Below are positions 31,001 through 59,298 of a DNA stretch of 61,141 nucleotides, piece after piece. The notes below the pieces were generated by a model that ran no database searches, had not been told where the DNA came from, and saw only the letters and a program-made list of their open reading frames with translations. Both the position numbers and the translations under genes were made by a program. Position 1 is the stretch's first letter. The number at the start of each line of letters is the position of its first letter. This stretch comes from a virus. Its lineage: Duplodnaviria > Caudoviricetes. The stretch lies in IMG/VR virus record IMGVR_UViG_3300037963_003681, positions 1 to 61,141 of that record, one strand, 5' to 3'.

Positions 31001-34000
31001 TCTAACTTCGTCTATTGTTACAGAATAGTCGTTATATCCATTAACGGTAAACTGTCTTGGTAATGATACACTACCGGAAGCCTTAATAGTTTGTCCAGCA
31101 AAAAATGTATTATCATTATCTCTATAACTATCTACAAAATAAATACGTCCATCACTTAATCCTGGGGTACCAGACATACTAAAAGGAGCATATCTATTTG
31201 TAACAGTATAATCTGTACCATAGCCTATAATGTCAACTAAAGAAGGAAGACTTAAATAACTAGACGAACCTGTAATAGAAGATGTAGCAAAATCTTGTAC
31301 AATATTGAAACACTCTACAAAATCAGCACCATTTACTAAATTACCTGAAAAAGAATTGGAAGCAGTTTCAAACTCAAGATAAGGATTATAAGAGCCAACA
31401 CAATCAAGTGTACTGATTAAAGAACCAGATGGAAGATTTTCATCTATACTAGTACTAGATAAAACAATGTCCGTAATGTCATCATTATTGCCATCAAAGT
31501 ATTCAAAAACTTGATATTCATTGTCGGTAACTGTTAAAAAGAAATCAGCGTGAATCTTGCTATGGTTATTTTCTGCGTAAACTCTAATGTTATATGTGCC
31601 TATTTTACAACCACCGGGAGAACCACTAAATGTTCGTGTAGCGGGAGTAAAGGTTATCCATGCTGGCAAGGGATGTCCATTCTGTAATGAAGCAGAAAAA
31701 GTCAGAGACCCTTCATCGTCTTCTTCGTTGAATATATTCGCAGGAAACGTATAGTCAAGAGTTTCTGTAATATCAACAGTGTGATTTGGAATATTTATGT
31801 GACTATAAGGAGACTTTTTATCATTAACAGTGATAGTGAAATTTTTCTCAAAAGTTTTACCCGCTATATAATTTGATGCTTTAAGTCTAATATTATAAAT
31901 ATTTTTAACTTCATAGTCTAATGGGTTTATAGCTACTAAATGGAATCTATCGTTATCATTTAATATTTCAAATGAGCTGTTGTCATCATCTAAATATCCA
32001 TCAGTTAATTCGTATTTTACAGGTTGGTACGATATATCTAAAGGAGTATCTACCCCAGTAGTATATATAGTTAATTGATCATTTCCTGGATGATTTTTAA
32101 ATCTCGTATAAAAGCATCTGTGTTTATTAAATATAGTTTTATCTGATTCAAAATTACCATCTATTACTTGTTTATGTGATAAAAATACTGAACCAGAATT
32201 TGATACTAATGGCAAAGTATGTACAAACCTACCAGAAGGATAGCTGCCTCTTTTGGGAATGTTTATACCAGAAATTAGAATTGTAGTATTATCACCTCTA
32301 TATCCAGTATAATTATGATGAATTTCAAAAGTACTATAAAATTGTTCACCGTCTTGAGTAGTATCAGCAAAAATTTTGTGAGCATTAGTAAATATGCCAC
32401 TAGAATAATTTGCTCCATTTACCCCATCTAATACAGAGATGCTACGATCATCAACAACTATGTCAGCATAATCAACAAGCTCTCCTGATCGATAATTAAT
32501 GATACCTGTATAATAAGGTCTTTCTGCATAAAAAGTATCTTTACCTATCACAGAGTAAACATTATAACCTTTGTCTGCTACAGGTTGTCCTGTTACATTA
32601 GTAAATCTTAAATCTATTTTGGAACCTACTGTTAAACCGTGATTGTCAGATACAATTTCAATACCTCTGTTGGTCGTATGCATTCTAAAATTACCAGAAT
32701 ATACTGGCGTATCAATATCTAAAACTAAATCGCCTCTGTTAGTTTTATAATATGATCCTGTAACTTGTTTTAATTCTTTGGTATATATGTAATAATCTTC
32801 TCGATTTTGTACAGACAATGCGTTGCTTTGTATAGGAGGATGTGTTACTTTAACATCTTGTTGCTGTCTATCTCCATTAGTATGACTAAATGTATGGTAA
32901 TGATTTTTAATTTGAGAATTATTGAACAGTTCTCTTTTCTTGGCTTGTTGTGGATGAGTTGTTAGATTGACTATTTGTGTAAAATTATTTGAATCTCTAT
33001 AAGTAGCATTTTTAAATATACCACTCATGAACTCATACTGAGCCACACCGGTGCCAAAAGCTTTGGTAATTAATAATTCTAAATTATATGCAAAGGTTTT
33101 ATTATTTGGTATAGTTATACTTGGAGTTAAAGTTCTCCATGTATTACCAGCTTCAACACCCTGAAGATGCATTGTAATTTGACTATGTTGAGCATGTTCT
33201 AACCTAGCTAATGATGTTGGATCATTGTGATTAAAAGCACCAAATGATAATTGGTTAGGAACATAAGCATAGCCATGATCTCCTATGGCTACTGAATTGT
33301 TTGTATTAACTTTTGAATTACTATTAAGGGCTATGGAATTATTACCAGTTACCGCATTATTTGTTCCTACTACTAAATTATTATTACCATCAATTATATT
33401 TGATTGTCCTATAGAAACAGATGATGTAGCAGAAGAAACTGTTCCTGATCCAACCACCAAACTTTGATTGTCATCTAGTATGATATCTCCAGCAGGATTT
33501 TGATATACAACAGAGCTATCTATTCTACCAGCTGGATCGTTTACTCCATCATTAAATTTTGGTAGATATGTATTGGTACCTTGAATATGATCAAATGTAA
33601 CATTATTATATGAAAATGCACCAGTAATATTAGCGGCATTTCTATAGTAAGAACCGTGTTGGCTATCTAGTAAATCAGTATTTAAATTAGTAACTAATCT
33701 AGTATTGCTACTTACATCAAATGGTGGATCTGTATTAGCATTAGGATCATCTACACGAATTTGTTTTCTAAAAGTAATATTAGACGTAAAAACCTTTTGG
33801 CCTTCTATTTCTTCATCACCCTTTAATTTAACATAAAGACCATCAGCTATATTTCTTAATAATATGGTTGAACTATCACCATCTAAGTTAGATACTACAT
33901 ATACAGAATTAGCATCACCACCATTAAGATCGTCTTCATCTCCATTTCCTGTATCCGCACCTGAAGCAAATACATTTGTGACAAGTTTTAGCTCATCATT

Positions 34001-36692: not shown

Positions 36693-39600
36693 TTAAGGTA
36701 TAATTTCTGGACTCATATTAGAGAGAATATTGGCTTCTCTATAGGCTGATGTTTCATTTAATCCTCCTACTTCTAGTAAATCAACTTTAGCTACCCAATT
36801 TACATTTGTAGAAGCTGCACCTTTGCATTGAACTAATAGATAGTCTGTTTGACCTGATTGGGCTCCAGCAAAGGCTAATTGTACATCCCAAGCGCTATTA
36901 GATTCTGCAATGACTGTTTTACTAGCGGACCCAACTAAAGCTGTACCAAAAGCATCATTAACTATACAAGCCTTAATTTGATATGCAGCATGCTGTCTTC
37001 CACCTGCAGTAGCTCCCGTATTTGTTCTACGTCCTACAATATTAACATCGGCCATAAATGTTTTATTAGAAGGTAGTTTAACACCGCTATACATTCCGTT
37101 ATTCATTTCTAAGCTAGTAAACGTAGCATTAGTAGTTCTACCAGTTAATAAGTTAATACTGTTTTGAGCATTACCAGGGAAATCTCCCCAAGCGGCTTCT
37201 GTGGAATGTACGATTGTACCACTTTGATGATGTAGTCCACTAACACCAACAATTAATCCTGTAGTAGCGGTAATACCTTGTGTATTAATGGATGAAGATA
37301 AGTCTATATTGACTTCTGTATCAGGAGTTTCTGTAATAGCAAAATTAGAAGCAAAATCTAAAGTAACAATGTCCGCACCACCAACTTGACTACCATTAGC
37401 TTTAACGGTTGTCATACTACCGCCACCTCCACCTCCTCCAGCATTAGCATCTACATATGCTTTAACTGATTGTTGAGTTGGAACTTTAGTAGCAGAATTT
37501 GAAGACATGTTATCTTCATCTATAACAAAATCCATACTTGATGTTGAAGTATCGGTATTCATAACCGCACCAGCAGCGTTTACATTTGTTGCGTCGGTGA
37601 CATCAGCAGACGCTTCTATACCGTCAAGCTTGGTTTTGTCTCCGTTAGCAAAGGCTCCTTCTGATGGCTTAACTTGCAAGGTGGAAATAGTAACGCCTTT
37701 AACACCTGCAAGGTCGGTTAATTCACTATCCATCAAGGCTCCGGCTGCTGTTACGTTAGCAGTATCTGTTACATCTGCGCTGGCTTCAATACCATCCAGT
37801 TTACTGTGATCTGCTGTTGTAAAGTTTTCATCTGTCTGAGATGCGACAACAAAATCAATAGTACCATCAGCGTCTTGGTAAGTAACAGTGATACCTGTCT
37901 CAGTATTACCAGAAAGCATTGCTCCAACAATATCTTGTATTTCTTCATCTGTTTGATCTGCTGTAGCATTGGCTTCAATACCATCAAGTTTAGTTTTGTC
38001 GCCATCAGCAAAAGCACCCTCTGAAGGCTTAGACTGTAAAGTAGAAATAGTAACACCTTTAACGCCTGCAAGGTCAGTTAATTCACTGTCCATCAAAGCT
38101 CCTGCGGCTGTTACATTAGCAGTATCTGTGACATCTGCACTACTCTCGACTGAATCCAATTTAGTCTCTTGAGCATCTGTCATAAATCTCTTATCAGATG
38201 CGTCTGTCATATTGGTAGTAACAAAATTAGGCGAAGCACCGGCTACTACTGATTGGTCTAATGCTTTAACGTCAGCAATGCTTGCTAACTCACTATCCAT
38301 CAGAGCACCAGCAGAAGTTACATTAGCTGTGTCTGTGACATCTGCGCTAGCTTCAATACCATCCAGTTTACTGTGGTCTGCTGTGGTAAAATTCTCATCT
38401 GTTTGAGACGCAACAACAAAATCGATAGTGCCATCAGCATCTTGATAAGTTACTGTAATACCTGTTTCGGTATTACTTGAGAGCATAGCCCCAACGATAT
38501 CTTGTATTTCTTCGTCTGTTTGATCAGCAGTTGCACCAGTTTCAATACCATCTAATTTAGTCTTATCTCCATTGGCAAATGCTCCCTCTGATGGAGGTTG
38601 TTGAGCACTGTCGGCCTTGGTTCCTTGAGCAGCAGTCGCGTAATCTGAAGAATCAAATGCTTTAACTTGTGATAAGTTTGTAACTTCAGAATCCATAAGA
38701 GCACCAGCACTAGTCACATTGGCTGTATCTGTAACGTCCGCATTCGCCTCTATACCGTCTAGTTTGCTATGATCTGCCGTGGTAAAGTTTTCATCGGTTT
38801 GACTAGCTACTACAAAGTCTATGGTCCCATCAGCATCTTGATATGTAACAGTAATCCCTGTCTCTGTATTTCCTGTAAGCATACCACCAACAAAGTCTTC
38901 TACCTGTTCTTCGGTAAGCTGTGTGTCTGTAGTAGAATATGTGTTTGTATCAACGCTACCATCGGCTTTTAAGAATTGACTAGATGTACCACCATCTTTA
39001 ACAAAACTATCAGCCTCAACTTTTCCACTAAAATGACCAGAACCAGTAACATCTATGTCGCCAGTGCCAGTTATATCTTTAGAGTTAAGATCTAAATTAC
39101 CACCGAGTTGTGGCGTGGTGTCTTCAACTACATTCCCTATGCCGCCGCCACCTCCAGCACTAGCTGTGGCTGTAGTTAAAGCAGTAACGTGACCGTTGCT
39201 ATCAAGTGTAATATCTTGAATAAAAGTATTTCCACTATTATCAGAAGAACTAGCAGCGCTAATGTTTGGATGTGCAGTTAAATAACCAGCACTGTCAATA
39301 TAGGCTTTTACTGACTGCTGAGTAGGAACCTTAGTGTCTGAATCAGATGACATATTGTCTTCATCCACTACAAAACTCATGCTCGCAGTAGAAGTGTCAG
39401 TATTCATTACTGCACCAGCTGCGTCAACATTAGTTGCATCGGTCACATCCGCACTAGCTTCAATAGCATCTAGCTTTGTCTTGTCCCCATCAGCGAATGC
39501 TCCTTCAGATGGCTTCACTTGCAATGTAGATATCGTGACTCCTTTAACACCAGCTAAGTCTGTTAACTCGCTGTCCATTAATGCACCAGCACTAGTTACA

Positions 39601-42600
39601 TTAGCTGTATCAGTTACGTCTGCTCCTGCTTCTATACCGTCCAATTTACTGTGGTCTGCAGTTGTAAAGTTCTCGTCTGTTTGACTAGCTACAACAAAGT
39701 CTAATGTACCATCACTATCATCATATGTGACTGTGATACCTGTTTCAGTATTACCTGTAACCATGCCTCCGACAAAATCTTCTACTTGTTCCTCTGTAAG
39801 TTGCGTATCTGTAGTAGAATACGTATTTGTATCAACACTTCCGTCAGCTTTCAAAAATTGACTAGATGTACCATGCTGTGTTTTAAAGCCAGATGCCGTA
39901 ATAACTCCACTGACATCTAACCTAGTTTGAGGAGAATCTGTCCCAACACCAATACTATCTGCACTGGCATCTATATAGAAAACATTATTTTCATTATCTC
40001 CATTATATTGTAAATCTACATTTGCTTTATTAACATTAAATCTAAAACCTAGTGAGGTATCTCTTAATTCTAATTTAGTACTACTGTTATTACCTCCAGC
40101 AGTTAGAGTCAAGGTTTTACTGTCTTTAGCACTGACGAACGTAGCGCCATCAGTATTCGCACATATCATAAAGTCGTTACTGCCATCCATACTACTATGT
40201 CGAAGTCCCATTGCATTAGTAATCCCATTAGCATCACTACAAGAACCAATGTGTAGTCCACCATCAACATCGCCACTACTTTTAATCTGAATACCACAAT
40301 GATTAGGCATAGTTTCCTGTAGTATAATATGACCTGTAGTACTTATGTCTCCAGAACCTATAATGTCTTTACCATTAACATCTAGATTACCACCAAGTTG
40401 TGGAGTTGTATCTTCTACAATGTTAGAAATACCACCTCCTCCACCACCGCCTTCAAATACTGAACCACTTTGAAAAATAGTTCCAGAGATTTCTATATCT
40501 CCAACAACATGTAATTTTCTAGCAGGAGATGTAGTTCCAAGACCAAGGTTTCCAGTAGGGACAACGATATTTGCATCAACATGTCGTGTGTTGATTGTTA
40601 TGTCTGTAGCTGTAGTAGAACCACCTTCTATTTTAATTCCATTAAGATTTGTTATCTGTATATTGTTTCTGGTGTCTTGAGTTCCACCACCAACTATTCT
40701 TATGTCAGAATTAGGACTAAATAAACGTTTGACACTACTACTGGCAGATACTCCAAAATAATTGGCCGCAGTTTCAAAAGCGGTTTTGAATTCTCCACTG
40801 TTCTGTATATCACCGATTATATCGATATCACCAGCCCCAGTTATATTATTAGAATTTAAATCTAAATTTCCACCTAGCTGTGGAGTCGTGTCTTCTACGA
40901 CATTAGAAATACCTCCACCTCCACCTCCACCTTGAAATACTGAACCGCTTTGGAAGATAGTACCAGAGATTTCTACATCACCGACGACATGTAATTTACG
41001 AACTGGGTCAGTTGTTGCAATACCGACATTGCCATCACCTGAAGTAATGACCATGCGAGTAGTATTATCTGTTGTAAGATACAGATCATGAGCTGATTCA
41101 GTACCTATTAAGCCAGCTAGATCACTACTAGAAGATTGTAGTTTAGTCACTACAGGTAGATCTCTAGATAAAAATCTTGCAAATGATCCTTGAGCTTGTA
41201 CATGTCCCACAACGTCTAACGTATAATCTGGAGAAGATGTGCCAAGGCCAATCCTGTCCGTACTAGCATCAGCGTAAAATAAATTCTGATCAGAGTTCCC
41301 CTCAATCCTAAAGTCTACATTCTCTCCATCCTCGTTAAAGACACTTACAGCAGGGGATAAATTTAACCTTTCTTTACTAACGCCAACGCTGTCAAAAGCA
41401 TTAAATGTTATAGAACTACTCTTTTGCCTATTAGTAACTACAAAACTATTACTAACCACTTGTATTGCAGTGCCGCTAAGGGCACCATGACCCGTAGTAT
41501 CATTAGTTAATTTAAGCTCTGGATAATTAGTAGCAGCAATGTGTATAGATGTATCACCGCCAGCCGGTGCTGGATTTACTGTCCCAACACCAACTTTACC
41601 ACCCATCGCTTGCAGTGCTATATCTTTTCCCCAACTACTACCAGGTTCAACGGCTTGTATATAGAAAACGTCATCTGTAGCATCTGCGCCAATCAATCCT
41701 CCGATAGTAGCTCCACTATTTTGAATTTTTATATGAGCTGTATTTTCACTATTATATCTTGCAGTATTATGCTGTATTCTAACTTTATTATTACCGGGAT
41801 TATCGGTTCCAATTCCAATACTATCAGTACTGGCATCAGCATAAATTAAGTTATTAGAAGTACCATGTACAGCAAAATCAAGATTCTCATTATTTAGATT
41901 AAATGCAACTTTTGTACTGTCGAATTTCATTTTTTCATTATGCTGTCCAACACCAAACATAAAGTTATTAACTAGTAATTGATATGTTTGATTATTATTA
42001 CCACCCCTAATAATAACAGAAGATCCGTCTTTTGCGCTCATAAATGTATGATCGCCCTTACTTAATAGCATGTACTCTTGAGAACCATCTAGTTTAGTAT
42101 GAGTTAGTCCCGTATATAAATCGTCATCATAAGAAGAACCATAAGAATTGTAAACAATTTCACCCAAGTGTAATCCTTGACCAGAAGAATTTACAATAGC
42201 TAAACCTAATCCAGTAGGAGTGTGTGTGAATCTACCGATACCAACAACATCTAATGTGTGAGCTGGTGTGCCTGTTCCTATACCAACATTACCATTAGGA
42301 TCTACTGTAACTCTTTCGCTTCCAGCCGTAGAGATTCTAACATCATTATCTTGAAATCGAATGTAAGTATCTGTATCAGTTCTATGATAGATATACTCAC
42401 CAAGCCCAATATCACCAGCAACGTCTAGTTCCCAAGAAGGCTCACCTACTCCATTAATACCTAACTTATTTGTAGATGCATCAAACTTTATTCCAGGGTT
42501 TCCTTGATTAGAACCATTACCCTTAACAACAAAATCAATATTATTAGCTCCGTCGTTAATAGTAACTTCGTGCGGAGCAGAGCCTCTTTTCTCCGCAGTA

Positions 42601-43712
42601 ACAAACGCCAGACCGCCTGGCTTCAAAACTATCGTATTATCAAGGAAATTAATGAGCGTATCTGTATCATCATTATGATAAATGTGTTGATCAACACCAA
42701 TTTTACTAAAAATTCCAGTACCAGTTATATCTATGTTGCCAACACCTGTAATGTTTTGAGAATTAATATCTAAATTACCGCCAAGCTGAGGAGTAGTATC
42801 ATCTACAATATCTCCTCCACCTCTAAACTCACCAGCATCTACCTTTTTAAGTTGTGAATCTGTAGCATCCCAAATTAATAAATAATCTGAATCTGCACTA
42901 GTTACTTCCACTCTACTGTTAATTAAATCAGGATTTACATTAAATTCTGTACTTTCTAATGATAGTCCTGTTCCTGCTGTATATTCTGTATTAGTATCTG
43001 TAACAGTTTCTGTAGCTGCAGTTATACCTATTACGTGACCATTACTATCTAATAAAATATCTTGGATATAAGTTCTACCACTATTATCAGAAGAAGAAGC
43101 AGCTGATGCTATAGTAGGATGAGAAGTTAAGTAATTTTGCAGATCTACTATCTGGGATTCAGTTATTCGTAAAGCACCTGTATGTTGAACTACTGAACTT
43201 TCGGTGATGTTAGTATCTGGTACATTAGCCCATGTAACTGCTGAAGATAAATCGTTTGTTTCGGTAAATGATGTTAAATAATTTTGTAAATCTACTATTT
43301 GAGATTCTGTAAGTCTTAATGCTCCACTATGTTGAATAACAGAGCTTTCCGTAATATTAGCATCTGGTACATTAACCCAAGTGACAGATGAAGATAGATC
43401 ATTAGTTTCTGTAACAGCACCGGATTCTGTAGCTGTAGTAATACCTATAACATGTCCATTATTATCAAGCAAAATATCTTGTATATATGTACGACCACTA
43501 TTATTTGATGAACTAGCTGCTGATATATTAGGGTGAGATTGTAAATAATCTAGTCCACTACCTATAGGATTTAAGCCACTCCATGCTGTAGTTCCATCTC
43601 CTATTTTTAATATATTATTAGTAGTATCAAACCCTGGTTCACCTTGTGATAATACAGGATTACTACTCCAATCCGTCCCTCTTCTTAATTTAATTGTATT
43701 ATTAACTGGCAT
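36693..43712 (-). CDS. Long repetitive fibre protein (2339 aa)
   Basis: N-terminal Mtd_N-like (IKLRRG..WSSNPVLSQGEPGFDTTNNILKIGDG); four (E/D)DTTPQLGGNLD modules; several G(N/K)VGIGT..P...LDV shaft repeats; KLDGIEA.ADVTD repeat array. Confidence 0.88.
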   Translation of the reverse strand: MPVNNTIKLRRGTDWSSNPVLSQGEPGFDTTNNILKIGDGTTAWSGLNPIGSGLDYLQSHPNISAASSSNNSGRTYIQDILLDNNGHVIGITTATESGAVTETNDLSSSVTWVNVPDANITESSVIQHSGALRLTESQIVDLQNYLTSFTETNDLSSAVTWANVPDTNITESSVVQHTGALRITESQIVDLQNYLTSHPTIASAASSSDNSGRTYIQDILLDSNGHVIGITAATETVTDTNTEYTAGTGLSLESTEFNVNPDLINSRVEVTSADSDYLLIWDATDSQLKKVDAGEFRGGGDIVDDTTPQLGGNLDINSQNITGVGNIDITGTGIFSKIGVDQHIYHNDDTDTLINFLDNTIVLKPGGLAFVTAEKRGSAPHEVTINDGANNIDFVVKGNGSNQGNPGIKFDASTNKLGINGVGEPSWELDVAGDIGLGEYIYHRTDTDTYIRFQDNDVRISTAGSERVTVDPNGNVGIGTGTPAHTLDVVGIGRFTHTPTGLGLAIVNSSGQGLHLGEIVYNSYGSSYDDDLYTGLTHTKLDGSQEYMLLSKGDHTFMSAKDGSSVIIRGGNNNQTYQLLVNNFMFGVGQHNEKMKFDSTKVAFNLNNENLDFAVHGTSNNLIYADASTDSIGIGTDNPGNNKVRIQHNTARYNSENTAHIKIQNSGATIGGLIGADATDDVFYIQAVEPGSSWGKDIALQAMGGKVGVGTVNPAPAGGDTSIHIAATNYPELKLTNDTTGHGALSGTAIQVVSNSFVVTNRQKSSSITFNAFDSVGVSKERLNLSPAVSVFNEDGENVDFRIEGNSDQNLFYADASTDRIGLGTSSPDYTLDVVGHVQAQGSFARFLSRDLPVVTKLQSSSSDLAGLIGTESAHDLYLTTDNTTRMVITSGDGNVGIATTDPVRKLHVVGDVEISGTIFQSGSVFQGGGGGGGISNVVEDTTPQLGGNLDLNSNNITGAGDIDIIGDIQNSGEFKTAFETAANYFGVSASSSVKRLFSPNSDIRIVGGGTQDTRNNIQITNLNGIKIEGGSTTATDITINTRHVDANIVVPTGNLGLGTTSPARKLHVVGDIEISGTIFQSGSVFEGGGGGGGISNIVEDTTPQLGGNLDVNGKDIIGSGDISTTGHIILQETMPNHCGIQIKSSGDVDGGLHIGSCSDANGITNAMGLRHSSMDGSNDFMICANTDGATFVSAKDSKTLTLTAGGNNSSTKLELRDTSLGFRFNVNKANVDLQYNGDNENNVFYIDASADSIGVGTDSPQTRLDVSGVITASGFKTQHGTSSQFLKADGSVDTNTYSTTDTQLTEEQVEDFVGGMVTGNTETGITVTYDDSDGTLDFVVASQTDENFTTADHSKLDGIEAGADVTDTANVTSAGALMDSELTDLAGVKGVTISTLQVKPSEGAFADGDKTKLDAIEASADVTDATNVDAAGAVMNTDTSTASMSFVVDEDNMSSDSDTKVPTQQSVKAYIDSAGYLTAHPNISAASSSDNSGNTFIQDITLDSNGHVTALTTATASAGGGGGIGNVVEDTTPQLGGNLDLNSKDITGTGDIDVTGSGHFSGKVEADSFVKDGGTSSQFLKADGSVDTNTYSTTDTQLTEEQVEDFVGGMLTGNTETGITVTYQDADGTIDFVVASQTDENFTTADHSKLDGIEANADVTDTANVTSAGALMDSEVTNLSQVKAFDSSDYATAAQGTKADSAQQPPSEGAFANGDKTKLDGIETGATADQTDEEIQDIVGAMLSSNTETGITVTYQDADGTIDFVVASQTDENFTTADHSKLDGIEASADVTDTANVTSAGALMDSELASIADVKALDQSVVAGASPNFVTTNMTDASDKRFMTDAQETKLDSVESSADVTDTANVTAAGALMDSELTDLAGVKGVTISTLQSKPSEGAFADGDKTKLDGIEANATADQTDEEIQDIVGAMLSGNTETGITVTYQDADGTIDFVVASQTDENFTTADHSKLDGIEASADVTDTANVTAAGALMDSELTDLAGVKGVTISTLQVKPSEGAFANGDKTKLDGIEASADVTDATNVNAAGAVMNTDTSTSSMDFVIDEDNMSSNSATKVPTQQSVKAYVDANAGGGGGGGSMTTVKANGSQVGGADIVTLDFASNFAITETPDTEVNIDLSSSINTQGITATTGLIVGVSGLHHQSGTIVHSTEAAWGDFPGNAQNSINLLTGRTTNATFTSLEMNNGMYSGVKLPSNKTFMADVNIVGRRTNTGATAGGRQHAAYQIKACIVNDAFGTALVGSASKTVIAESNSAWDVQLAFAGAQSGQTDYLLVQCKGAASTNVNWVAKVDLLEVGGLNETSAYREANILSNMSPEIIP
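37450..39880 (-). repeat. Intragenic mosaic repeat array in the 2339-aa fibre
   Basis: Recurrent blocks GNTETGITVTYQDADGTIDFVVASQTDENFTTADHSKLDGIEA, ADVTDTANVTSAGALMDSE, PSEGAFA(D/N)GDKTKLD and DEDNMSS.S.TKVPTQQSVKAY, with synonymous DNA divergence between copies. Confidence 0.9.
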
Positions 43713-49899: not shown

Positions 49900-51933
49900 T
49901 TATTTATAGATACCAGTATAAAAATCATCATTCGCTCCTCCTGTGAACCAATCTGGGCCTTTGTACATATCTCCCTCTTGATTCACTATCTCTGTGCGAT
50001 TTCCTCCAATAACATCGTAATCCGGTCTAGCGAGTTGTTGTCTAGTTTGTCTAGCTAACATATTAGCTATTACCAAGGAGCTATATCTGTCTTTTCTTAA
50101 TCGACCCTTTTTACCTGTTTGCAACTTGACCTCAGGTGTATCCCATTTGTCTCTTGCTCCTGATCCTGTACTAGTCTGTGTCATAACAATAGTAGTTAGT
50201 TCGTTCTTAAGATCTTCTATTTCTAAAATACATTCACTCAAACTATCATATAGTGGACTTAAATCTGTCTTCAATATATCTTTACCTTCTTCATCTAATG
50301 CTAAACCTAAAGTTAGCTGATCGAATCTTGGAAATAACAAAACTCTATCTTCAAAATCTTTTCTTAGTCCGTGATTAGCCTGTGCTGTCCAATCTGCCTT
50401 TGCAAATTGAACCATATCTAAAATATGTAATCCCTGCTGTGAATCTGTATCTTTGCTTTTATCATAGTTAATTACTGGCCATATCAATTGTTCATTAGGT
50501 TCCAAATTCTTTGGGTCATGTAAAGCCTCTTCAATAGCGATACCACCACCCTGAGCATCCATACCAATTACCTTTGGAGGAAATGTCCTCATAAGATTTC
50601 TAATCTTCCTTGCACAAAAACCATAAAAATCATGTTCATTAGTAAGACCTGATTTCTGTCTCTCTTTAAAATTGCTTCTATTGGTAGTCCAACAATATAC
50701 AATTCTAGAATGATCAGGATGCAATTCCAAAATAACTATACTGAAATTGTCTTTTTCCGATGCTGGATCAATACCATATACATATTGATTATGAATATTA
50801 CCTTGAGTAGTAGCATCAAACAATATAGTTTTATCTCCAATAATAATAGGATCACTTTCATTAGCCACACATGCTTCCAACATGCTCCTCTTAAAAAATC
50901 CATCGCTGTCTTTTGTAAAACATGCAGCATATTCCATATTATAAATACCAGTATGAATTGTAGCTTTAGCTCTAGCTACCTGCTTATCATCCATAAAACC
51001 TTTAGGAATTAACTCGTAAGGTATTCTAATAATGCTATAATCCTGCCAATTAAAATTATCTGGAACCTCACCCTTGAAAAGATCCTCTAACTTCTGCTTA
51101 TCACCTTTGCTTTCAATAATAGATTTGTATCTTCTCCAGTACTGAGCAAAATGTTTAAAACTATAATCAGCAGTTCCTGATATAATAGCTTGATTTCCCA
51201 TCTTAGTATCTAATGCTTCTAACTGTTCATTCCATATCCCAGCTTCTGTCATAGCTTTTTTCTTCGCTGCTTCTTTTACATTTTCAATAGGACTAGCAGA
51301 GACAGCAGCAAAACCTGCAACAACTGTTTCATATATGTCTGGTGATATTGATGCGAATTCGTCAGCGATAATAATATGTGCTCTGAGTCCTCTAATCTTG
51401 GAGCCATCTCCCATTGGAACTGCAATTGTCCAACTGTCACCAAGTCGTATCGTACACCTATCTACATCTCTTCTCGGCCCATCTTCATTCCCAGAAAAAA
51501 TGCTTCTAAGGATCGGACTGTTCCTCCACATAGTTTCCATATATTCAAATATAATTTTACTCTGTCTAAATGCAGCACCTACAATTACAATCTTAGTGCC
51601 AGGATAGAAGGTACATCTTAAGACGGCATACAAAGCCAAAAGAAACGATTTACCCCAACCACGAGAAGCTATATACATAGGGAATGGTCTGTTCCAAAAT
51701 TCCTGTAGTATAACACATTGCATAGGATGCAACTCTATGTTAAATAATAATTTACAAGTTGCCCCTACATACTTTGGGTCACGTAGTAATTTCATAAGGT
51801 GTAGATCTGGGTTTTCGATCTCGGTCTCGGTCCTATGAATCATTGGATTCGTAGGTACTTGGATTTTTGACAGATCCCCCAGACCTAGCCATGCATCATC
51901 AAATATCTGTTTTGGGTTGTCCGTGGTACTCAT
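49900..51933 (-). CDS. terL: Terminase large subunit (677 aa)
   Basis: LHPMQ Q-motif, Walker A ASRGWGKS, Walker B IIIADEF, nuclease YGIDPAS and KDRYSSL. Confidence 0.93.
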   Translation of the reverse strand: MSTTDNPKQIFDDAWLGLGDLSKIQVPTNPMIHRTETEIENPDLHLMKLLRDPKYVGATCKLLFNIELHPMQCVILQEFWNRPFPMYIASRGWGKSFLLALYAVLRCTFYPGTKIVIVGAAFRQSKIIFEYMETMWRNSPILRSIFSGNEDGPRRDVDRCTIRLGDSWTIAVPMGDGSKIRGLRAHIIIADEFASISPDIYETVVAGFAAVSASPIENVKEAAKKKAMTEAGIWNEQLEALDTKMGNQAIISGTADYSFKHFAQYWRRYKSIIESKGDKQKLEDLFKGEVPDNFNWQDYSIIRIPYELIPKGFMDDKQVARAKATIHTGIYNMEYAACFTKDSDGFFKRSMLEACVANESDPIIIGDKTILFDATTQGNIHNQYVYGIDPASEKDNFSIVILELHPDHSRIVYCWTTNRSNFKERQKSGLTNEHDFYGFCARKIRNLMRTFPPKVIGMDAQGGGIAIEEALHDPKNLEPNEQLIWPVINYDKSKDTDSQQGLHILDMVQFAKADWTAQANHGLRKDFEDRVLLFPRFDQLTLGLALDEEGKDILKTDLSPLYDSLSECILEIEDLKNELTTIVMTQTSTGSGARDKWDTPEVKLQTGKKGRLRKDRYSSLVIANMLARQTRQQLARPDYDVIGGNRTEIVNQEGDMYKGPDWFTGGANDDFYTGIYK

Positions 51934-52378
51934 AAATTTTTCTCATGATTGCTAATGCTTCTTTTTCTGCATTTGCAGCATTGCCACAAAAAACAATTTT
52001 AACATTATGTAGTATTTGTAATTCATTAATATGTTTAAGAATAAACTTAGGACTAATCCTTAATTTACTCCACATCCTTTTAGGTACTGTAGATCCCACA
52101 GGATACTTTAGTACATCTTCTAGATCGAATTCAAATAATAAAAAAGGATACTTAAATTGAGACAATCTTTCTACAACGTCCTTGAATCTTTTTTCCGTAA
52201 TATTATTTGCAAACTCACTTACATTTCCTTTCCTTTCGATACAAAATAAATCTTCGAGTCCTCTCAAAGAATAGTCTCCTGTATCTAATTTAGCTACGGT
52301 CTGTTCCATTTTATCAAATGTCCACGGATGTTGTTCTCTAGTATCTACTATAATATGAAAGTTACTGAAGTCTATCAT
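51899..52378 (-). CDS. ERCC4-domain nuclease (159 aa)
   Basis: IIVDTREQ, LDTGDYS and CIERK motifs. Confidence 0.88.
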   Translation of the reverse strand: MIDFSNFHIIVDTREQHPWTFDKMEQTVAKLDTGDYSLRGLEDLFCIERKGNVSEFANNITEKRFKDVVERLSQFKYPFLLFEFDLEDVLKYPVGSTVPKRMWSKLRISPKFILKHINELQILHNVKIVFCGNAANAEKEALAIMRKIYEYHGQPKTDI

Positions 52379-52631
52379 TGGCTAATATCTTTAAAAAAGT
52401 GGATGCGTATAATTCTTCCTGACCTTTAATTAAATTGTGGTGATATCTGCAAAGCGTAATTCCGTTAGCCACCTCAAATCTCAACCCAGGATAATGTGCC
52501 CAGGTTTTAATATGATGAGCATTCAACTTTTTCTTAATTTTACAATTTGGCCATCTGCAACAATAGTGATCTCTTCTATATACAGCTTGTCGCCATTTTT
52601 TATATTGAGGATCACCATAGTTTCTAAACAT
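52362..52631 (-). CDS. HNH endonuclease (89 aa), probably packaging-associated
   Basis: WRQAVYRRDHYCC..C...LNAHHIK...NGITLCRYHH; near TerL. Confidence 0.88.
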   Translation of the reverse strand: MFRNYGDPQYKKWRQAVYRRDHYCCRWPNCKIKKKLNAHHIKTWAHYPGLRFEVANGITLCRYHHNLIKGQEELYASTFLKILANDRLQ

Positions 52632-53595
52632 CGTTTTTCACCATGTCCTGTACTAAATCAATAAAACTCATTTGAGGTTCCCATCCTAGTTTTTCCTTAG
52701 CTAGACTAGGATCCCCACACAAATACTCTACCTCTGCTGGACGAAATAAATCCGGGTCAATTTCTACATGATCTTTTACACTTAAATTTGCTCCTTTAAA
52801 TGCCATTTCTAAAAATTCTTTTACGCTATGTGTTTCTCCGGTAGCAATTACAAAGTCTTGTGGTTGTTCCTGCTGAAGCATCATCCACATAGCCCGCACA
52901 TAATCCTTAGCATGACCCCAATCTCGATGAGCATCCAAGTTCCCCAGCTTCAATTTATCTGTTCTTTCTTTTCTGATTAATTCCCCAATATACTTAGTGA
53001 TTTTTCTAGTTACAAAATTCTCGCCTCTTCTAGCGCTTTCATGATTAAACAATATCCCACAACAAGCGAAAAGGCTATAAGCAGATCTATAAATCTCCAC
53101 CATATTATGAGAAGCCAGCTTTGCAACCCCGTAAGGACTTTGCGGTAGCATTTCTGTTTTTTCATTTTGATATTTTCTACCGTTTTTCTCGCTTGAGTAA
53201 TTTCGCCCAAACATCTCGCTTGTGCTTGCTTGATATAGCTTGGTATGAGGAGAGTGATGACGTATAGCCTCCAATATATTGGTTACACCTATAGTATTTA
53301 TTTCAAACGTGGTTGAAGGTTGCTTGAAACTAGTTCCAACATGAGATTGTGCAGCAAGATTGTAAAACTCATCTGGTTGGTATTTATTAACTGTTTGAGT
53401 AACTCCACTAGGATCAGTAAGATCAAATTCAGTTAGTTTATATCGGGGATTTGAGAGTAGGTGATTAATACGATTTAGATTATTTGTACTGGATCTTCTA
53501 TGACATCCTATTACGTTATATTCTTTCTCTAATAATAGTTCTGATAGATATGAGCCATCTTGTCCGGTTATTCCTGTTATAATGGCAGTTTTCAT
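52624..53595 (-). CDS. gmd: GDP-mannose 4,6-dehydratase
   Basis: ITGITGQDGSYL, YNLAAQSHV, YQASTSE, PQSPYGVAK, GILFNHES, FVTRKIT, RDWGHAKDYV and FRPAEV motifs are all intact. Confidence 0.96.
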   Translation of the reverse strand: MKTAIITGITGQDGSYLSELLLEKEYNVIGCHRRSSTNNLNRINHLLSNPRYKLTEFDLTDPSGVTQTVNKYQPDEFYNLAAQSHVGTSFKQPSTTFEINTIGVTNILEAIRHHSPHTKLYQASTSEMFGRNYSSEKNGRKYQNEKTEMLPQSPYGVAKLASHNMVEIYRSAYSLFACCGILFNHESARRGENFVTRKITKYIGELIRKERTDKLKLGNLDAHRDWGHAKDYVRAMWMMLQQEQPQDFVIATGETHSVKEFLEMAFKGANLSVKDHVEIDPDLFRPAEVEYLCGDPSLAKEKLGWEPQMSFIDLVQDMVKNDV

Positions 53596-53598
53596 ATA

Positions 53599-54435
53599 TT
53601 ATTCCTTATCCTTTTCTACTATGGTTTCTGGAGTTAATAATGGGCTGTCTACAGTATCATCAGCATAATTATGGTATTCTGCTAGTAGTTTTTTATTTTT
53701 ATCTACAGCCATAGCCATAATTTCCATTTCTCGTCCTTCCTTTTCTCTAATCTCTTCGTCTTCTAACATACGAATCAATCCGATCCAACTGCTTTTACCA
53801 TCCTCGATACGTTTAATACGTTGTTCTCTGGTGGCTTTTAAATCTTTACTTATCTTCTGTTGTTCATTTAATAGTTTAGTATATTCGTTTGTATAGTTAG
53901 CTATGCTATTACGAGCAAATGAGAGTTGGGTTTCCAGATTGGCAAGTTTAGCAGCATCACGGGCATCTTCTGGTAATTTATATTCATTATCTACTTCTTC
54001 TTGTAATTTTTCAGTGTCAGATATGTGGCGTTTTCTTTCTTTCATAGATCTGTTGATAAGAATGTCTATGGTTATAAATTGTTTGATTTGTAGTTCTTCT
54101 GCAGGTAGTACGTCTTCTCTAAATTGTTTTACTAGACCTATCCATGTGTCTTCAAAGTATTGTAGTTCTCCTGTGGATTTGTCGAACTGTTTTGTAATTT
54201 CTATCCAAAAGGTCTTTGCATGTAGTTTTTGTCGTAATGTTGTATCATTCTCTTGTTCATCTTTAGATTTAAGTCCAATTTTAGATTCACTGATATATCG
54301 TTCTACTGGTTTAATTGTTCTATTTAAATTGTCTGCAATTTGTTGTACAGGTAGAATGGCTACATGATCTCTGATATATTGTTCTTCTTCTAAACTTAGT
54401 TGTCCACGTTTTCTTGGCGGGGTTTTAGATTTCAT
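53599..54435 (-). CDS. HTH plus coiled-coil protein (278 aa), candidate terminase small subunit
   Basis: N-terminal HTH-like LPVQQIADNLNRTIKPVERYI; long coiled coil; upstream of TerL in the same operon. Confidence 0.4.
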   Translation of the reverse strand: MKSKTPPRKRGQLSLEEEQYIRDHVAILPVQQIADNLNRTIKPVERYISESKIGLKSKDEQENDTTLRQKLHAKTFWIEITKQFDKSTGELQYFEDTWIGLVKQFREDVLPAEELQIKQFITIDILINRSMKERKRHISDTEKLQEEVDNEYKLPEDARDAAKLANLETQLSFARNSIANYTNEYTKLLNEQQKISKDLKATREQRIKRIEDGKSSWIGLIRMLEDEEIREKEGREMEIMAMAVDKNKKLLAEYHNYADDTVDSPLLTPETIVEKDKE

Positions 54436-55102
54436 AATTATGTTCTTTGAGGATTTCTTTAATACATTCTAATAACTTGTTAAGGTCGGTTTTATATACC
54501 TTATCACCATATCGTAATTTTAAATATGCTGGTCTATGTTGTGCTGGTATGTTCTCATCTAGTATTTTAAGGATTTGTTCGTTGGATACAATTTCTAATA
54601 TAGATTGTTCTGAGGATAGTCTGGATATCGAAACATTTTGAGATTGTAGATCTTCTATACCTACTGGTTTCATAATGTTCTTTTTATTGGTATTACGGTT
54701 ATTCCATGTATTATATTCTTGGCAGTTAGTTTTGTCAGTATACTCTTCACATTGGTTTGTAGAAGTTTTGCAGTGGGGATCATAGAATATACAAGATAGA
54801 CAAGGTTTGTCGGGACGTTGATAATTATCACGTTTATAGTTAAATAGTCTGTTTCTTACGTGGGTCCAAAGAAAGTTTTCTAGTGGACGTTTATTATCAT
54901 ATTTATTTAATCCTTCAAGAGCAAAAATTGCTGCTTGTTGTTTCATGTCCTCGTAGCTATGGTATCCGAATTTAAATTTATGTCCAAGTCTTTTACTAAT
55001 GTTATCTAATACTAATAAAAATTCTTGTTCGTCCACACCATTAGGTAGAGTCGATTTCTTTTTCTTCGTTGTTTTCTTCTTCGTCGCTTTTTTCTTGGTC
55101 AT
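54425..55102 (-). CDS. Phage sigma-factor-like protein (225 aa)
   Basis: Sigma70 region 2-like EDMKQQAAIFALEGLNKYDNKRPLENFLWTHVRNRLFNYKRD; Cys-rich insert (CLSC..C..C..C); short region-4-like C-terminus. Confidence 0.7.
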   Translation of the reverse strand: MTKKKATKKKTTKKKKSTLPNGVDEQEFLLVLDNISKRLGHKFKFGYHSYEDMKQQAAIFALEGLNKYDNKRPLENFLWTHVRNRLFNYKRDNYQRPDKPCLSCIFYDPHCKTSTNQCEEYTDKTNCQEYNTWNNRNTNKKNIMKPVGIEDLQSQNVSISRLSSEQSILEIVSNEQILKILDENIPAQHRPAYLKLRYGDKVYKTDLNKLLECIKEILKEHNYEI

Positions 55103-55214
55103 GTAATAAGCTTGCTATGCTTTTCCCGTCTGGTTTGTTTAGATCTTCTGTGACATCCAGTGCTCCAGAAGCTTTAGTTTCCAAAACAGAATTTACATTC
55201 GTAACTTTATTCAT
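55041..55214 (-). CDS. Small acidic hypothetical protein (57 aa), not in ORF track
   Basis: AAGGA RBS; MNKVTNVNSVLETKASG...EEKEIDST*; first gene of the late operon. Confidence 0.6.
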   Translation of the reverse strand: MNKVTNVNSVLETKASGALDVTEDLNKPDGKSIASLLHDQEKSDEEENNEEKEIDST

Positions 55215-55250
55215 AATAAATTCCTTGCCTCGATTTAAAATTGTACTACT

Positions 55251-55278
55251 ATAATACTATAAATACACGATTTGTCAA
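55251..55278 (-). promoter_or_regulatory. Sigma70-like promoter of late/sigma operon with nested GTGTAT element
   Basis: Minus strand TTGACA-AATCGTGTATTTATAG(16)-TATTAT. Confidence 0.55.
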
Positions 55279-55294
55279 CTTTAAGGCATAAATT

Positions 55295-55540
55295 ATGAAA
55301 AAGTACAAGAAATGGAGCAGTGAAGAGTTGTGTTATATCTCTGAAAACTGCAACAAAATGAAGGATAAGGAATTGGCAACTTTGTTAACTGAGAAATGTA
55401 ATGTTGAAATAACGGTAGATATGATCAGGAGACAAAGACGCAAATTACAGATACGAAAGAAACAGGGACGTCATAAAAACCAGCAAAAAGAGACTAGTAG
55501 TGTGGAGACAGGGAATGTAGGGTCTACTACTATAGTTTAG
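55295..55540 (+). CDS. Small basic HTH/Myb-like DNA-binding protein (81 aa)
   Basis: KWSSEELCYI...DKELATLL...ITVDMIRRQRRKLQIRK; divergent from the late operon. Confidence 0.6.
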   Translation: MKKYKKWSSEELCYISENCNKMKDKELATLLTEKCNVEITVDMIRRQRRKLQIRKKQGRHKNQQKETSSVETGNVGSTTIV

Positions 55541-55739
55541 GTAATACATATAAAATTATCACTTCTTACTTTTTTTGCATCCCCCCGCGTTTTTGAGACA
55601 CGATCTCAATACCTATGTAAAATGAAAAAACCCCCATATTGAGGGGAAAGCTATAAAAACATATTCTAAAATGTGATTTTACATATATTTTCTAATATTG
55701 AGACAATTATTGTACAATCTACTGTACATGCTTATACCG

Positions 55740-55785
55740 TGTAGCATTTTGCATTGCATTTTGCAATTATTGTAGCATTTTGCAT
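55740..55785 (+). repeat. Direct repeat TGTAGCATTTTGCAT x2 (31-bp period) plus a third GCATTTTGCA; enhancer-like
   Basis: Exact copies at 55740-55754 and 55771-55785; the core is also at 55756-55765. Confidence 0.8.
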
Positions 55786-55849
55786 ATCGTGTTTCATAAT
55801 GAGAATACGAATAACCCTATAAAACAAGTATAAAAATTTTTTTTAGTTT

Positions 55850-55865
55850 TGGCACGCCGATTGCA
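55850..55865 (+). promoter_or_regulatory. Sigma54 (-24/-12) promoter
   Basis: TGGCACG-CCGA-TTGCA is an exact match to TGGCACG-N4-TTGCW. Confidence 0.8.
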
Positions 55866-55903
55866 TATTTATATAAACATGAAAAGCAATAAAAAATTAT
55901 CAC

Positions 55904-55940
55904 TTGACAGATTCAAGAAAATAGTTTCTAATGCCGATAT
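55904..55940 (+). promoter_or_regulatory. Overlapping sigma70 and sigma28-type promoters
   Basis: TTGACA-N17-TCTAAT and TCAA(55913)-N16-GCCGATAT(55933). Confidence 0.7.
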
Positions 55941-55971
55941 AAGAAATAACACTACTTTGAAAGGAAATGAA

Positions 55972-56178
55972 ATGAAAATTCAATTAGCACAATCTACAAT
56001 CCTCAATACCGATCTTCGCGTTATCGACATTCACAGCCGCCAAGTTGTGGTTCGTTGGTCGACTCAAAAGGTTATCGGGTTCGCCGATAATGGCGGTTTT
56101 TCACAAGACCCGCTACGTGTCCGGTATTTTCAAAATCTACTTGATATGTATAATATCGACGGAGTTTGGCACGCTTGA
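55972..56178 (+). CDS. Hypothetical early protein (68 aa)
   Basis: AAAGGA RBS supports the start MKIQLAQS rather than the track's 55849 start. Confidence 0.65.
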   Translation: MKIQLAQSTILNTDLRVIDIHSRQVVVRWSTQKVIGFADNGGFSQDPLRVRYFQNLLDMYNIDGVWHA

Positions 56179-56203
56179 CGTAGACCGGCCGATAGTGTAG
56201 ACT
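56175..56203 (+). promoter_or_regulatory. Sigma70-like promoter containing GCCGATAG
   Basis: TTGACG-N17-TAGACT, with a sigma28-like -10 box in the spacer but no clear sigma28 -35. Confidence 0.55.
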
Positions 56204-56212
56204 TTTGACATT

Positions 56213-56233
56213 CACCACCACCACCACCACCAC
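56213..56233 (+). repeat. (CAC)7 microsatellite in leader of HNH gene
   Basis: Seven perfect CAC units. Confidence 0.9.
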
Positions 56234-56243
56234 GAGAAAAATT

Positions 56244-56684
56244 ATGAGACGCAAACAACCGATTCCCGCCGCCCTACGATTGCAAGTGATCGACCGTGAC
56301 AATGGCCGCTGCCGTGCTTGTGGTATCGGCGACCGTGACGCCCTACAAGCCGATCATATCAAGCCAGAATCGAAGGGTGGTAAAACTACTCTCGACAATC
56401 TGCAAGCCTTGTGCGGTGTCTGCAATAATCGCAAACAAAATACCGTGGTCGAGTTGGACATCCGCCCCGCTGTCGAGGGGTTCGGTGATTATGCTGAGGT
56501 AATGCAAGCCCGAACGGAATTCCTCGAAACACTTGCAAACGTCCGACAATCTGAAGTCCGACGATTAGAGGGTCTGGTCAAGGCATGGCGGGAAGCCAAT
56601 GTCCGGGGTTGCATCATCCGCAATCGCCTAGAAAAGATGGTCGACAAACGCAAGGTCGAAAAAATCCTACGATCCACCCGATAG
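56244..56684 (+). CDS. HNH endonuclease-domain protein (about 146 aa)
   Basis: VIDRDNGRCRACG...ADHIKPESKGGKTTLDNLQALCGVCNNRK; likely start MRRKQPIP. Confidence 0.88.
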   Translation: MRRKQPIPAALRLQVIDRDNGRCRACGIGDRDALQADHIKPESKGGKTTLDNLQALCGVCNNRKQNTVVELDIRPAVEGFGDYAEVMQARTEFLETLANVRQSEVRRLEGLVKAWREANVRGCIIRNRLEKMVDKRKVEKILRSTR

Positions 56685-56689
56685 AGGGG

Positions 56690-56727
56690 TTGACAAAATT
56701 AAAGTTTTTAGTTTATAATGCCGATAT
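56690..56727 (+). promoter_or_regulatory. Overlapping sigma70 and sigma28-type promoters
   Basis: TTGACA-N18-TATAAT and TAAA(GTTT)(56700)-N16-GCCGATAT(56720). Confidence 0.8.
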
Positions 56728-56753
56728 AACAAATAACACGAAAGGAATTAAAA

Positions 56754-56918
56754 ATGAAAGTATTTGATAAAAAACAAGTTGAGGAATTATTTCAAGTCGT
56801 CACAATGTACATCACAGATTGCTGTGGTGAATATGTTTCAGATGATAGTTCAGACATCTGCCCAGCATGTGGCGAACATACCGAAATCATCACAGAAGAA
56901 TATGAGGTGACTAAATGA
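56754..56918 (+). CDS. Small Zn-ribbon-like protein (54 aa), not in ORF track
   Basis: AAAGGA RBS; TDCCGE...DICPACGEH; ATGA overlap with the next gene. Confidence 0.75.
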   Translation: MKVFDKKQVEELFQVVTMYITDCCGEYVSDDSSDICPACGEHTEIITEEYEVTK

Positions 56919-59241: not shown

Positions 59242-59278
59242 TTGACAGCTAAAGTTTTGCATGGTAAAATGTCGATAT
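59242..59278 (+). promoter_or_regulatory. Overlapping sigma70 and sigma28-type promoters
   Basis: TTGACA-N17-TAAAAT (with TGn extension) and TAAA(GTTT)(59250)-N17-GTCGATAT. Confidence 0.75.
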
Positions 59279-59298
59279 AACACTTAGGAGGAAACAAT

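Follow-up and report, generated by a model that had tools for sequence, protein, structure and literature searches.

By what means is an early phage gene transcribed when it stands behind a sequence resembling an enhancer-dependent bacterial promoter? This question is raised by a gap of 431 nt between two open reading frames (ORFs) of IMG/VR virus record IMGVR_UViG_3300037963_003681, which was analysed in its entirety (61,141 bases, rated 41% complete; hereafter the window). An earlier note, made from the letters of this DNA alone, had read the gap as a sigma-54 promoter depending on a host activator and stacked with sigma-70 and sigma-28 promoters on the first early gene. Our comparisons with related phages indicate that positions 55742-55877 are probably a complete promoter module of the enhancer-dependent sigma-54 class, reading rightward into an array of early genes. 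The host-activator-dependent promoter of the earlier proposal is thus supported by a conserved module and by the lack of a phage activator; the repeats are not NtrC-like, and use by three sigma classes was not shown. The clade to which the window belongs consists of marine phages whose genomes measure about 230 kb, and DNA of the window is contained in marine metagenome runs of eight studies. The elements of the locus are as follows, with dyad centres counted from a +1 at 55876.

55295-55540, plus strand: first plus-strand ORF after the strand switch
55742-55754, no strand: activator-type dyad 1, TAGCATTTTGCAT, with 2 mismatches to TTGCA-W3-TGCAA, centred at about -128 and aligned with relatives
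55754-55766, no strand: activator-type dyad 2, TTGCATTTTGCAA, a perfect TTGCA-W3-TGCAA, centred at about -116
55773-55785, no strand: activator-type dyad 3, TAGCATTTTGCAT, with 2 mismatches to TTGCA-W3-TGCAA, centred at about -97 and aligned with relatives
55796-55808, plus strand: conserved block ATAATGAGAATAC between dyads and box
55816-55849, plus strand: remnant of a CCTAT palindrome (ATAGG in relatives) and an A5T8 tract at 55832-55844
55850-55865, plus strand: sigma-54-type -24/-12 box TGGCACGCCGATTGCA (TGGCACG-CCGA-TTGCA), GG at 55851-55852 and GC at 55863-55864
55875-55877, plus strand: predicted transcript start, placed 11-13 nt past the GC; variants of the locus also diverge here
55972-56178, plus strand: ORF of 68 aa with the ribosome-binding site AAAGGAAA, a movable cassette and the second plus-strand ORF after the strand switch

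The box is present as the earlier note had described it, and its GG and GC doublets lie one helical turn apart, in keeping with TGGCAC-N5-TTGCW and thus with the sigma-54 class. It is intergenic, co-oriented with the downstream gene and situated 106 nt ahead of the ATG at 55972. Within the 61,141 bases it is the sole perfect match to TGGCACG-N4-TTGCW, a pattern that appeared in none of 500 block shuffles; the looser TGGCAYR-N4-TTGCW appeared in 18 of the 500. The alternative of a sigma-70 promoter TTGGCA-N17-TATAAA was rejected, as the TATA-rich block of the relatives stands only 12-15 nt after TGGCA when aligned by eye. The predicted leader (55876-55975) folds no better than its shuffles (z 0.00).

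Upstream of the box, the two identical 15-mers reported previously (TGTAGCATTTTGCAT at 55740-55754 and 55771-55785, 31 bp apart) are indeed there, but a third, middle core had been missed, and it belongs to the sole perfect dyad; the three GCATTTTGCA cores start at 55744, 55756 and 55775. Exact TTGCA-W3-TGCAA had a mean of 0.00 in 100 shuffles, and dyad 2 is the only perfect one in the window. Sites with up to two mismatches show no whole-window enrichment (7 versus a mean of 8.56 in shuffles), so the signal lies in the exact site and in the clustering of three within 44 nt. All three dyads fall in the range of about 80-150 nt upstream in which activator sites of sigma-54 promoters are looked for. 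The A/T tract that had been noticed between the repeats and the promoter is the A5T8 listed above; the segment 55816-55849 around it is likely a bend or flexible spacer for looping, and no IHF site was seen by eye between dyads and box on comparison with the known consensus. The ATAATGAGAATAC block differs by 1-2 changes among the window and loci L165, L169, L007 and L004, and is not found in the alignment of L225-227.

The evidence that carries this reading comes from relatives, which were reached through the gene that ends the leftward half of the window:

54425-55102, minus strand: last minus-strand gene, encoding a 225-aa protein with weak likeness to sigma-70 region 2

This sigma-like protein scores E 0.0027 against Pfam, below the cut-off, and E 3.1e-5 against a PHROG sigma factor family, and its relatives occur in 183 viral contigs, always adjoining a promoter-rich junction. 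The counts given below for the clade refer to the 80 loci retained out of these 183 (600,670 nt), whose source contigs reach about 232 kb and are in several cases 100% complete. TGGCAYR-N4-TTGCW occurs 136 times in these loci and the backwards pattern not once, and replacing N4 by spacers of 2, 3, 5 and 6 gave 0, 1, 0 and 0 occurrences. When only TGGCA-N6-TTGC was required, the 113 distinct sites had C or T at position 5 in 110 cases, G or A at position 6 in 109 and T or A at the last position in 101; degeneracy of the Y, R and W type at exactly these positions is that of the sigma-54 consensus. Most distinct boxes (73/97) lie outside any ORF of at least 100 aa. Five complete relatives contain 7, 3, 3, 1 and 3 boxes versus none for a control pattern, and in the first of them, G003, six of the seven are found within 5 kb, adjoining the sigma-like gene.

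The same picture was obtained when modules were collected by an anchor that excluded the box, namely a LuxO-type dyad followed by a CCTAT...ATAG/AGTA block: 24 of the 32 distinct tails had the box, the remaining 8 being unrelated sequences. All 20 co-oriented modules retain TGGCA and TTGCA (once GTGCA) at fixed spacing, with the six middle bases in 10 forms. L165, which is closest to the window at the protein level (96%), has TGGCACGATACTTGCA as its box and GCATAATGCA, GCATTTTGCA and GCATATTGCA as its dyads, while in L007, L004 and L169 the A/T centres of all three dyads are flipped (GCAAAATGCA), which is what dyad sites would give. Exact-word scans of IMG/VR returned two contigs with both the box and the 15-mer repeat, and in both of them the entire module is conserved and the flanks and the downstream gene differ. 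Lack of conservation in relatives had been named by the earlier note as a finding that would speak against it; box and repeats form, on the contrary, a conserved and orientation-specific module. It might be objected that many windows were scanned and that a 16-mer of such information content will occur somewhere, so that the box would be a chance match in A/T-rich intergenic DNA. The absence of the strict pattern from all 500 shuffles, together with the conservation and the clade-wide enrichment with exact spacing, refutes this explanation, the probability of which is practically negligible.

The dyads share this dependence on orientation. For 23 of 98 distinct boxes, TTGCA-W3-TGCAA with at most one mismatch is found within -180 to -30, whereas a downstream stretch of equal length has it for none (0/98); two or more such sites stand upstream of 14 boxes and downstream of none. 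Their centres cluster near -118 and -98 in the clade, and a looser pattern gives 24 upstream against 0 downstream. Strict upstream polarity of this kind is a prediction for an activator site. The gene start in L169, L007, L004, L225-227 and L270 comes about 40-70 nt past the box and is preceded by a purine-rich or Shine-Dalgarno-like stretch.

The possibility that the repeats are instead replication-origin iterons, or a packaging site, at the place where the gene strands diverge may draw on the position of three repeats beside A/T-rich DNA and on a GC skew that changes sign near 54-56 kb. The skew change, however, coincides with the change of coding strand and is therefore not independent evidence, and no DnaA-box-like site exists in 55100-56000 (8 in the window versus 8.96 expected). 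Moreover, up to three dyad arrays occur per locus in L172 and L173, each ahead of a box and a gene, and in G003, a genome with terminal repeats at its two ends, the region occupies 160-167 kb of 230,691 bases and is thus remote from either terminus. With multiple modules, and with that of G003 some 160 kb into the genome, the coincidence with an origin or packaging site that the earlier note had allowed for is not supported, and we regard it as very unlikely.

As to the kind of activator, the earlier note had compared the repeats with the NtrC pair of E. coli. The consensus of the NtrC dyad is TGCACY-N5-RGTGCA; no such site was found near the locus, and the only two matches with 2 mismatches in the window (6.07 expected) are both far from it. 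The repeats are thus not NtrC-like and match instead TTGCA-W3-TGCAA, the consensus of LuxO, an activator of the NtrC family that acts on the qrr genes of vibrios. According to PMC11443567, this consensus is found at the qrr genes in sites at -89 to -120, often paired, of which at least one is perfect. The V. cholerae LuxO sites at qrr1-4 listed from chromatin immunoprecipitation sequencing in Table 1 of PMC10328515 are ttgcaaaatgcaa, ttgcaatttgcaa and ttgcattttgcaa.

The second part of the earlier proposal concerned the sigma-70 and sigma-28 promoters. Two elements of the window bear on it directly:

55904-55952, plus strand: copy of an early promoter, with TTGACA at 55904-55909, 17 nt, TCTAAT at 55927-55932 and then the conserved GCCGATATAAGAAATAACAC
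56690-56739, plus strand: second, intact copy of this promoter, with TTGACA, 18 nt, TATAAT and GCCGATAT, 12/12 matches

The first copy has a 6/6 match in its -35 hexamer and a spacer of 17, lacks the A at position 2 of the -10 hexamer and was not listed by our promoter scan. The 31 nt at 56709-56739 in the second are 94% identical to the first copy. Both represent an early promoter that is found throughout the clade (as seen in relatives L165-L244) and consists of a T-rich stretch, TTGACA, TAAAG, TATAAT and GYCGATATAAG, followed by a purine-rich leader. A third copy stands at 59242-59280 of the window, after those at 55904-55952 and 56690-56739. The consensus of sigma-28 (FliA/SigD) is TAAA, 14-16 nt, GCCGATAW. 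In the window, GCCGATAT at 55933-55940 offers only the -10-like part of it, with no TAAA 14-16 nt upstream; the full pattern exists solely at 56700 and 58249 (0.06 expected), and the intact early-promoter copy also matches TAAAGTTT-N12-GCCGATAT. GYCGATAW is enriched (12 versus 4.05 expected), with seven plus-strand copies between 55933 and 59278. GCCGATAT is, then, the conserved stretch that follows the -10 in the early promoter of the clade, whose consensus is conserved well beyond the needs of sigma-70 and is one base off the known sigma-28 spacing. The control of one gene by three sigma classes was accordingly not shown, the sigma-70 -10 being defective and the supposed sigma-28 promoter being a part of the early promoter. 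What remains of the stacking is that the box stands at a conserved distance from the early promoter across the clade, whereas the window copy qualifies neither as a sigma-70 nor as a sigma-28 promoter.

No activator is encoded in the window, as the earlier note had stated, and our profile searches extend this to the relatives. Neither the sigma-54 activator ATPase (PF00158) nor the sigma-54 DNA-binding domain (PF04552) was detected in the window, two partial and five complete relatives, the only hit to the former being a RuvB-like protein of 301 aa; the sigma-54 core-binding domain (PF04963) and the Fis-type helix-turn-helix (PF02954) were absent from the window and four complete relatives. 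One of the complete relatives searched, G003, has a module of the window's type. As no sigma-54, activator or Fis-type domain was found in the phages, the trans-acting factors would be those of the host, and the combination of this result with the conserved module makes a host-dependent promoter the best reading of the locus. Host sigma-54 RNA polymerase would sit on the box as a closed complex, and a host activator of the NtrC family with LuxO-like DNA specificity would assemble on the dyads, loop over the A/T tract and use ATP to open the promoter. The 68-aa gene, or the zinc-ribbon gene that takes its place in relatives, would then be transcribed according to the state of the host activator. 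Box and gene are separated by the weakened sigma-70-like promoter copy, so that the two promoters would act in tandem.

Several features of the clade and of its possible hosts weigh against a promoter of this kind. About half of the boxes in the relatives point, by our tally, against the early genes, which is unusual for promoters. An opposite partner lies within 60 nt of 22 of the 97 boxes, at offsets of 18/19 when face to face and -24 to -34 when back to back, and none of the three palindrome types of these loci (the TTGCA-W3-TGCAA dyad and the two types given below) is found near 48 of 98 boxes. The boxes are also tied to the early promoters: 41 of 68 distinct TATAAT-GYCGATA promoters have a box within 260 nt upstream, and, with distances counted from the C of CGATA, -81 to -84 is the position of 17 of 30 co-oriented boxes and -109 to -116 that of 16 of 26 inverted ones. 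The box of the window, at -85, would equally fit an upstream operator. An RNA-run contig, moreover, spans 55771-55872 and hence lies upstream of the predicted start; this RNA evidence consists of assembled contigs from two metatranscriptome runs that contain small shares of the window, DNA carry-over is possible and transcript starts are not readable.

Some further observations concern the arrangement of the boxes in the relatives. Face-to-face double boxes (TGGCAYR-N4-TTGCW, 2-3 nt and the same inverted, a palindrome of about 35 bp) were seen at 161365-161398 of L258 (G003) and in L180, L184, L230 and L235, and also in viral contigs of higher G+C, L261 (GC 0.56, 9 boxes in 7.1 kb) and L263 (GC 0.46, 7 boxes in 7.0 kb). 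Such pairs have TTGCA-N3-TGCAA at their centre. Two other palindromes flank boxes: GACGTAAGT-N15-ACTTACGTC, with a stem of at most 9 bp (type B; 11 cases upstream and 11 downstream), for instance at 162855-162883 and 163961-163989 of L258 (G003), in L220 and in others, and CTGCCA-TTT-TGGCAG (type C, 1 upstream and 5 downstream). They often stand just downstream of inverted boxes and could function as terminators, as binding sites or as small-RNA bodies. In some cases an inverted and a co-oriented box have one dyad array in common, as ordinary divergent sigma-54 promoters do (L172). PMC4591121 reports that the E. coli sigma-54 holoenzyme can occupy sites other than classical promoters, and by analogy such occupancy could explain the inverted boxes. 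The non-canonical E. coli sites described there are, however, intragenic and chromosomal, whereas the phage boxes are intergenic and regularly placed.

The inverted and paired boxes and the fixed distances to the early promoters make a binding protein other than sigma-54 a live rival and the main one. Boxes and dyads would then be operators for one or more other phage or host DNA-binding proteins, tuning the early promoters or terminating and insulating early cassettes, and their resemblance to sigma-54 and LuxO sites would reflect convergence on TGGCA/TTGCA half-sites. This would accommodate the sharply preferred distances, the abundance of inverted and face-to-face boxes in the clade and in L261 and L263, the single half-site vocabulary that the TTGCA-N3-TGCAA centre of the face-to-face pairs suggests, the other palindromes on both sides of the boxes and our failure to find an activator gene in the phages. 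Convergence would, on the other hand, have to reproduce the sigma-54 consensus both in its spacing and in its free positions, and the strict placement of the window-class dyads upstream of the box (24 versus 0) at the published LuxO distances. Genes of the window class, furthermore, start some 40-70 nt behind the box, mostly with no sigma-70 promoter, so something must initiate there, and no candidate for the binding protein was found. On balance we consider operators of this kind somewhat doubtful, and the host-dependent sigma-54 promoter remains our preferred reading.

Scanning for the composite pattern (dyad, 60-90 nt, box) gave 18 viral loci, 13 of them of the clade by sequence and 5 not, and at least 118 loci in metagenome contigs. 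Of the 103 distinct metagenome matches listed with enough flank, 31 have two or more dyads; the matches listed precede pilin-like, sensor-like and other bacterial genes at G+C of 0.32-0.65. Genes of the type IV pilin kind (N-terminal GFTLIEL...) were observed behind sigma-54 boxes in metagenome loci L287, L323, L345, L369, L326, L353 and L378, the first four of which have at least two TTGCA-W3-TGCAA dyads at about -70 to -130. On sequence grounds this suggests that activators other than LuxO may use TTGCA-W3-TGCAA. Given that the dyad stands ahead of many unrelated bacterial genes, it is an activator site in wide use for which LuxO is the characterised case, and LuxO is a lead and not an identification.

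That the host possesses sigma-54 and a fitting activator is an assumption of ours. Of 41 genes, 29 have a Shine-Dalgarno motif ahead of them (background 0.084), and together with the TTGACA/TATAAT promoters these motifs fit a bacterial host that uses signals of both kinds and argue against Bacteroidota. Contigs of relatives were binned in a Flavobacteriales metagenome-assembled genome (MAG), an unclassified MAG and an archaeal MAG, and we treat these assignments as binning noise. The Flavobacteriales MAG has rpoN; its own match to the paired dyads is the phage module sequence, and dyad pairs exist in 4 of 41 of its relatives, while none of 301 Flavobacteriales genomes showed the composite pattern. 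The weak Flavobacteriales hint of the binned contig thus points to a host with which a sigma-54 promoter would be harder to reconcile. The best phage matches of a neighbouring gene are in Synechococcus phages, the hosts of which are not known to have sigma-54; control searches for the sigma-54 domains gave no match in S. elongatus. The matches of the GP88-like and Gmd proteins, again best in Synechococcus phages (37-52%), are too weak to name a host.

Among cultured phages there is little to guide the assignment. No DNA match was obtained in 50,697 phage records, the terminase is 21-26% identical, among the matches listed, to those of Bacillus, Clostridium and Microcystis phages, neither the portal nor the sigma-like protein matched any cultured phage, and the capsid protein falls into virus-only clusters of a protein atlas. 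Membership of the Moraphages, described as T4-like aquatic jumbo phages in PMC12619734, was considered and set aside, as no evidence places the clade there.

The genes served by the module differ between relatives. The 68-aa ORF gave no match in a family search and is not the first early gene, as had been claimed, since ORF 55295-55540 precedes it. In most close relatives the gene directly behind the box is a homologue of another ORF of the window:

56754-56918, plus strand: zinc-ribbon-like ORF of 54 aa with the pattern CxxC...CxxC

In L270 it is a homologue of the 68-aa ORF that takes this position. Variation was also seen at the locus itself: one contig of DNA run X12 has a joint of 55875 to 55970, in which 55876-55969 is swapped for 32 other letters, and one contig of RNA run X20 joins 55872 to 56277. 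It is the module that stays constant while the cargo changes, and the break point is the predicted start.

Farther from the module, the window is divided between minus-strand genes, among them structural ones, and small plus-strand ORFs from 55295 on, many of which are preceded by strong TTGACA/TATAAT promoters. The remaining features are these.

Up to 55102, minus strand: genes including the large terminase, a portal-sized ORF and the capsid protein
49900-51933, minus strand: large terminase
55593-55609, no strand: dyad TTGAGA-CACGA-TCTCAA, about 250 nt upstream of the box
55621-55645, minus strand: terminator-like hairpin with a T-run, CCCTCAATATGGGGG TTTTTTCATT

The TTGAGA-N5-TCTCAA dyad had been reported before and is present. 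It is retained as TTGAGACTGATTCTCAA in L169 and L004 and partly in L165, is absent from L007 and L225-227 in the alignment, and is probably a separate element, a hairpin or binding site behind ORF 55295-55540. The AAAAAACCCCC stretch of the minus-strand hairpin is found again in the aligned relatives. Giant ORFs of 4438, 2339 and more than 2160 aa (22019-35335, 36693-43712 and 1-6480, minus strand) lie amid the structural genes, and an ERCC4-domain nuclease (51899-52378, minus strand) and a GDP-mannose 4,6-dehydratase-like gene (52624-53595, minus strand) lie between the terminase and the regulators; the product of the latter is about 50% identical to homologues of Synechococcus phages and an archaeal virus. 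G+C is higher in the HNH and early regions (about 0.44) than it is among the structural genes (about 0.33-0.38), and the leader of the HNH endonuclease gene (56244-56684) holds a (CAC)7 repeat at 56213-56233, the matching leader in L226 being an (AAC) repeat.

If the host-dependent promoter is real, a widespread marine phage lineage repeatedly uses sigma-54 promoters and encodes neither sigma-54 nor its activator, in departure from the usual description of phage early transcription, in which host sigma-70 is followed by phage-made factors. Part of the phage programme would be conditional on host signalling, through the phosphorylation or ligand state of the activator, and the module would serve as a handle on the host, which must have rpoN and an activator binding TTGCA-W3-TGCAA. 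Were the host a relative of Vibrio, the signal would be its quorum-sensing state, since low cell density is the condition in which LuxO is active. A more specific version, which we consider unlikely, is that this phage and the module-bearing part of the clade infect a Vibrio-like host and have copied the architecture of qrr promoters, so that phosphorylated LuxO and sigma-54 would switch on particular early genes at low cell density only. A lytic giant phage would in that event read the quorum-sensing state of its host via a borrowed enhancer while possessing neither a receptor nor a regulator itself. Inverted boxes of relatives that are followed by hairpins with 9-bp stems might likewise drive small phage RNAs.

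A full-text literature search, which covered articles and not their supplementary files, returned no description of sigma-54-type promoters in a phage genome. The two papers on phages that mention sigma-54 concern phage proteins resembling activators or sigma-54 and not phage promoters.

Among bacterial promoters, glnAp2 of E. coli with its NtrC sites resembles the phage module in having paired sites about 100-140 nt upstream and some three helical turns apart; it differs in that the NtrC dyad itself is absent near the module. Closer is the likeness to the qrr promoters of Vibrio, which, according to PMC11443567, share with the phage locus a -24/-12 box and one to three close dyads about 90-120 nt upstream, at least one of them perfect. 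The TTGCATTTTGCAA of the window is identical to the V. cholerae qrr3 site, and TTGCAAAATGCAA of the relatives is the qrr1 site, as both are given in Table 1 of PMC10328515. The module is, however, located in a phage and not in a chromosome, and its host may not be a Vibrio. The phage boxes precede small protein genes, whereas the qrr promoters drive Qrr RNA, and at gathering score no Rfam family, and so no Qrr-like RNA, was detected in the window or in 19 loci.

Phages T4, T5 and SPO1 use arrays of early promoters served by host sigma-70. Our clade resembles them in having several strong TTGACA/TATAAT promoters ahead of small early genes, and differs from them in that many of its promoters have a sigma-54-type box at a fixed upstream distance and GYCGATATAAG after the -10.

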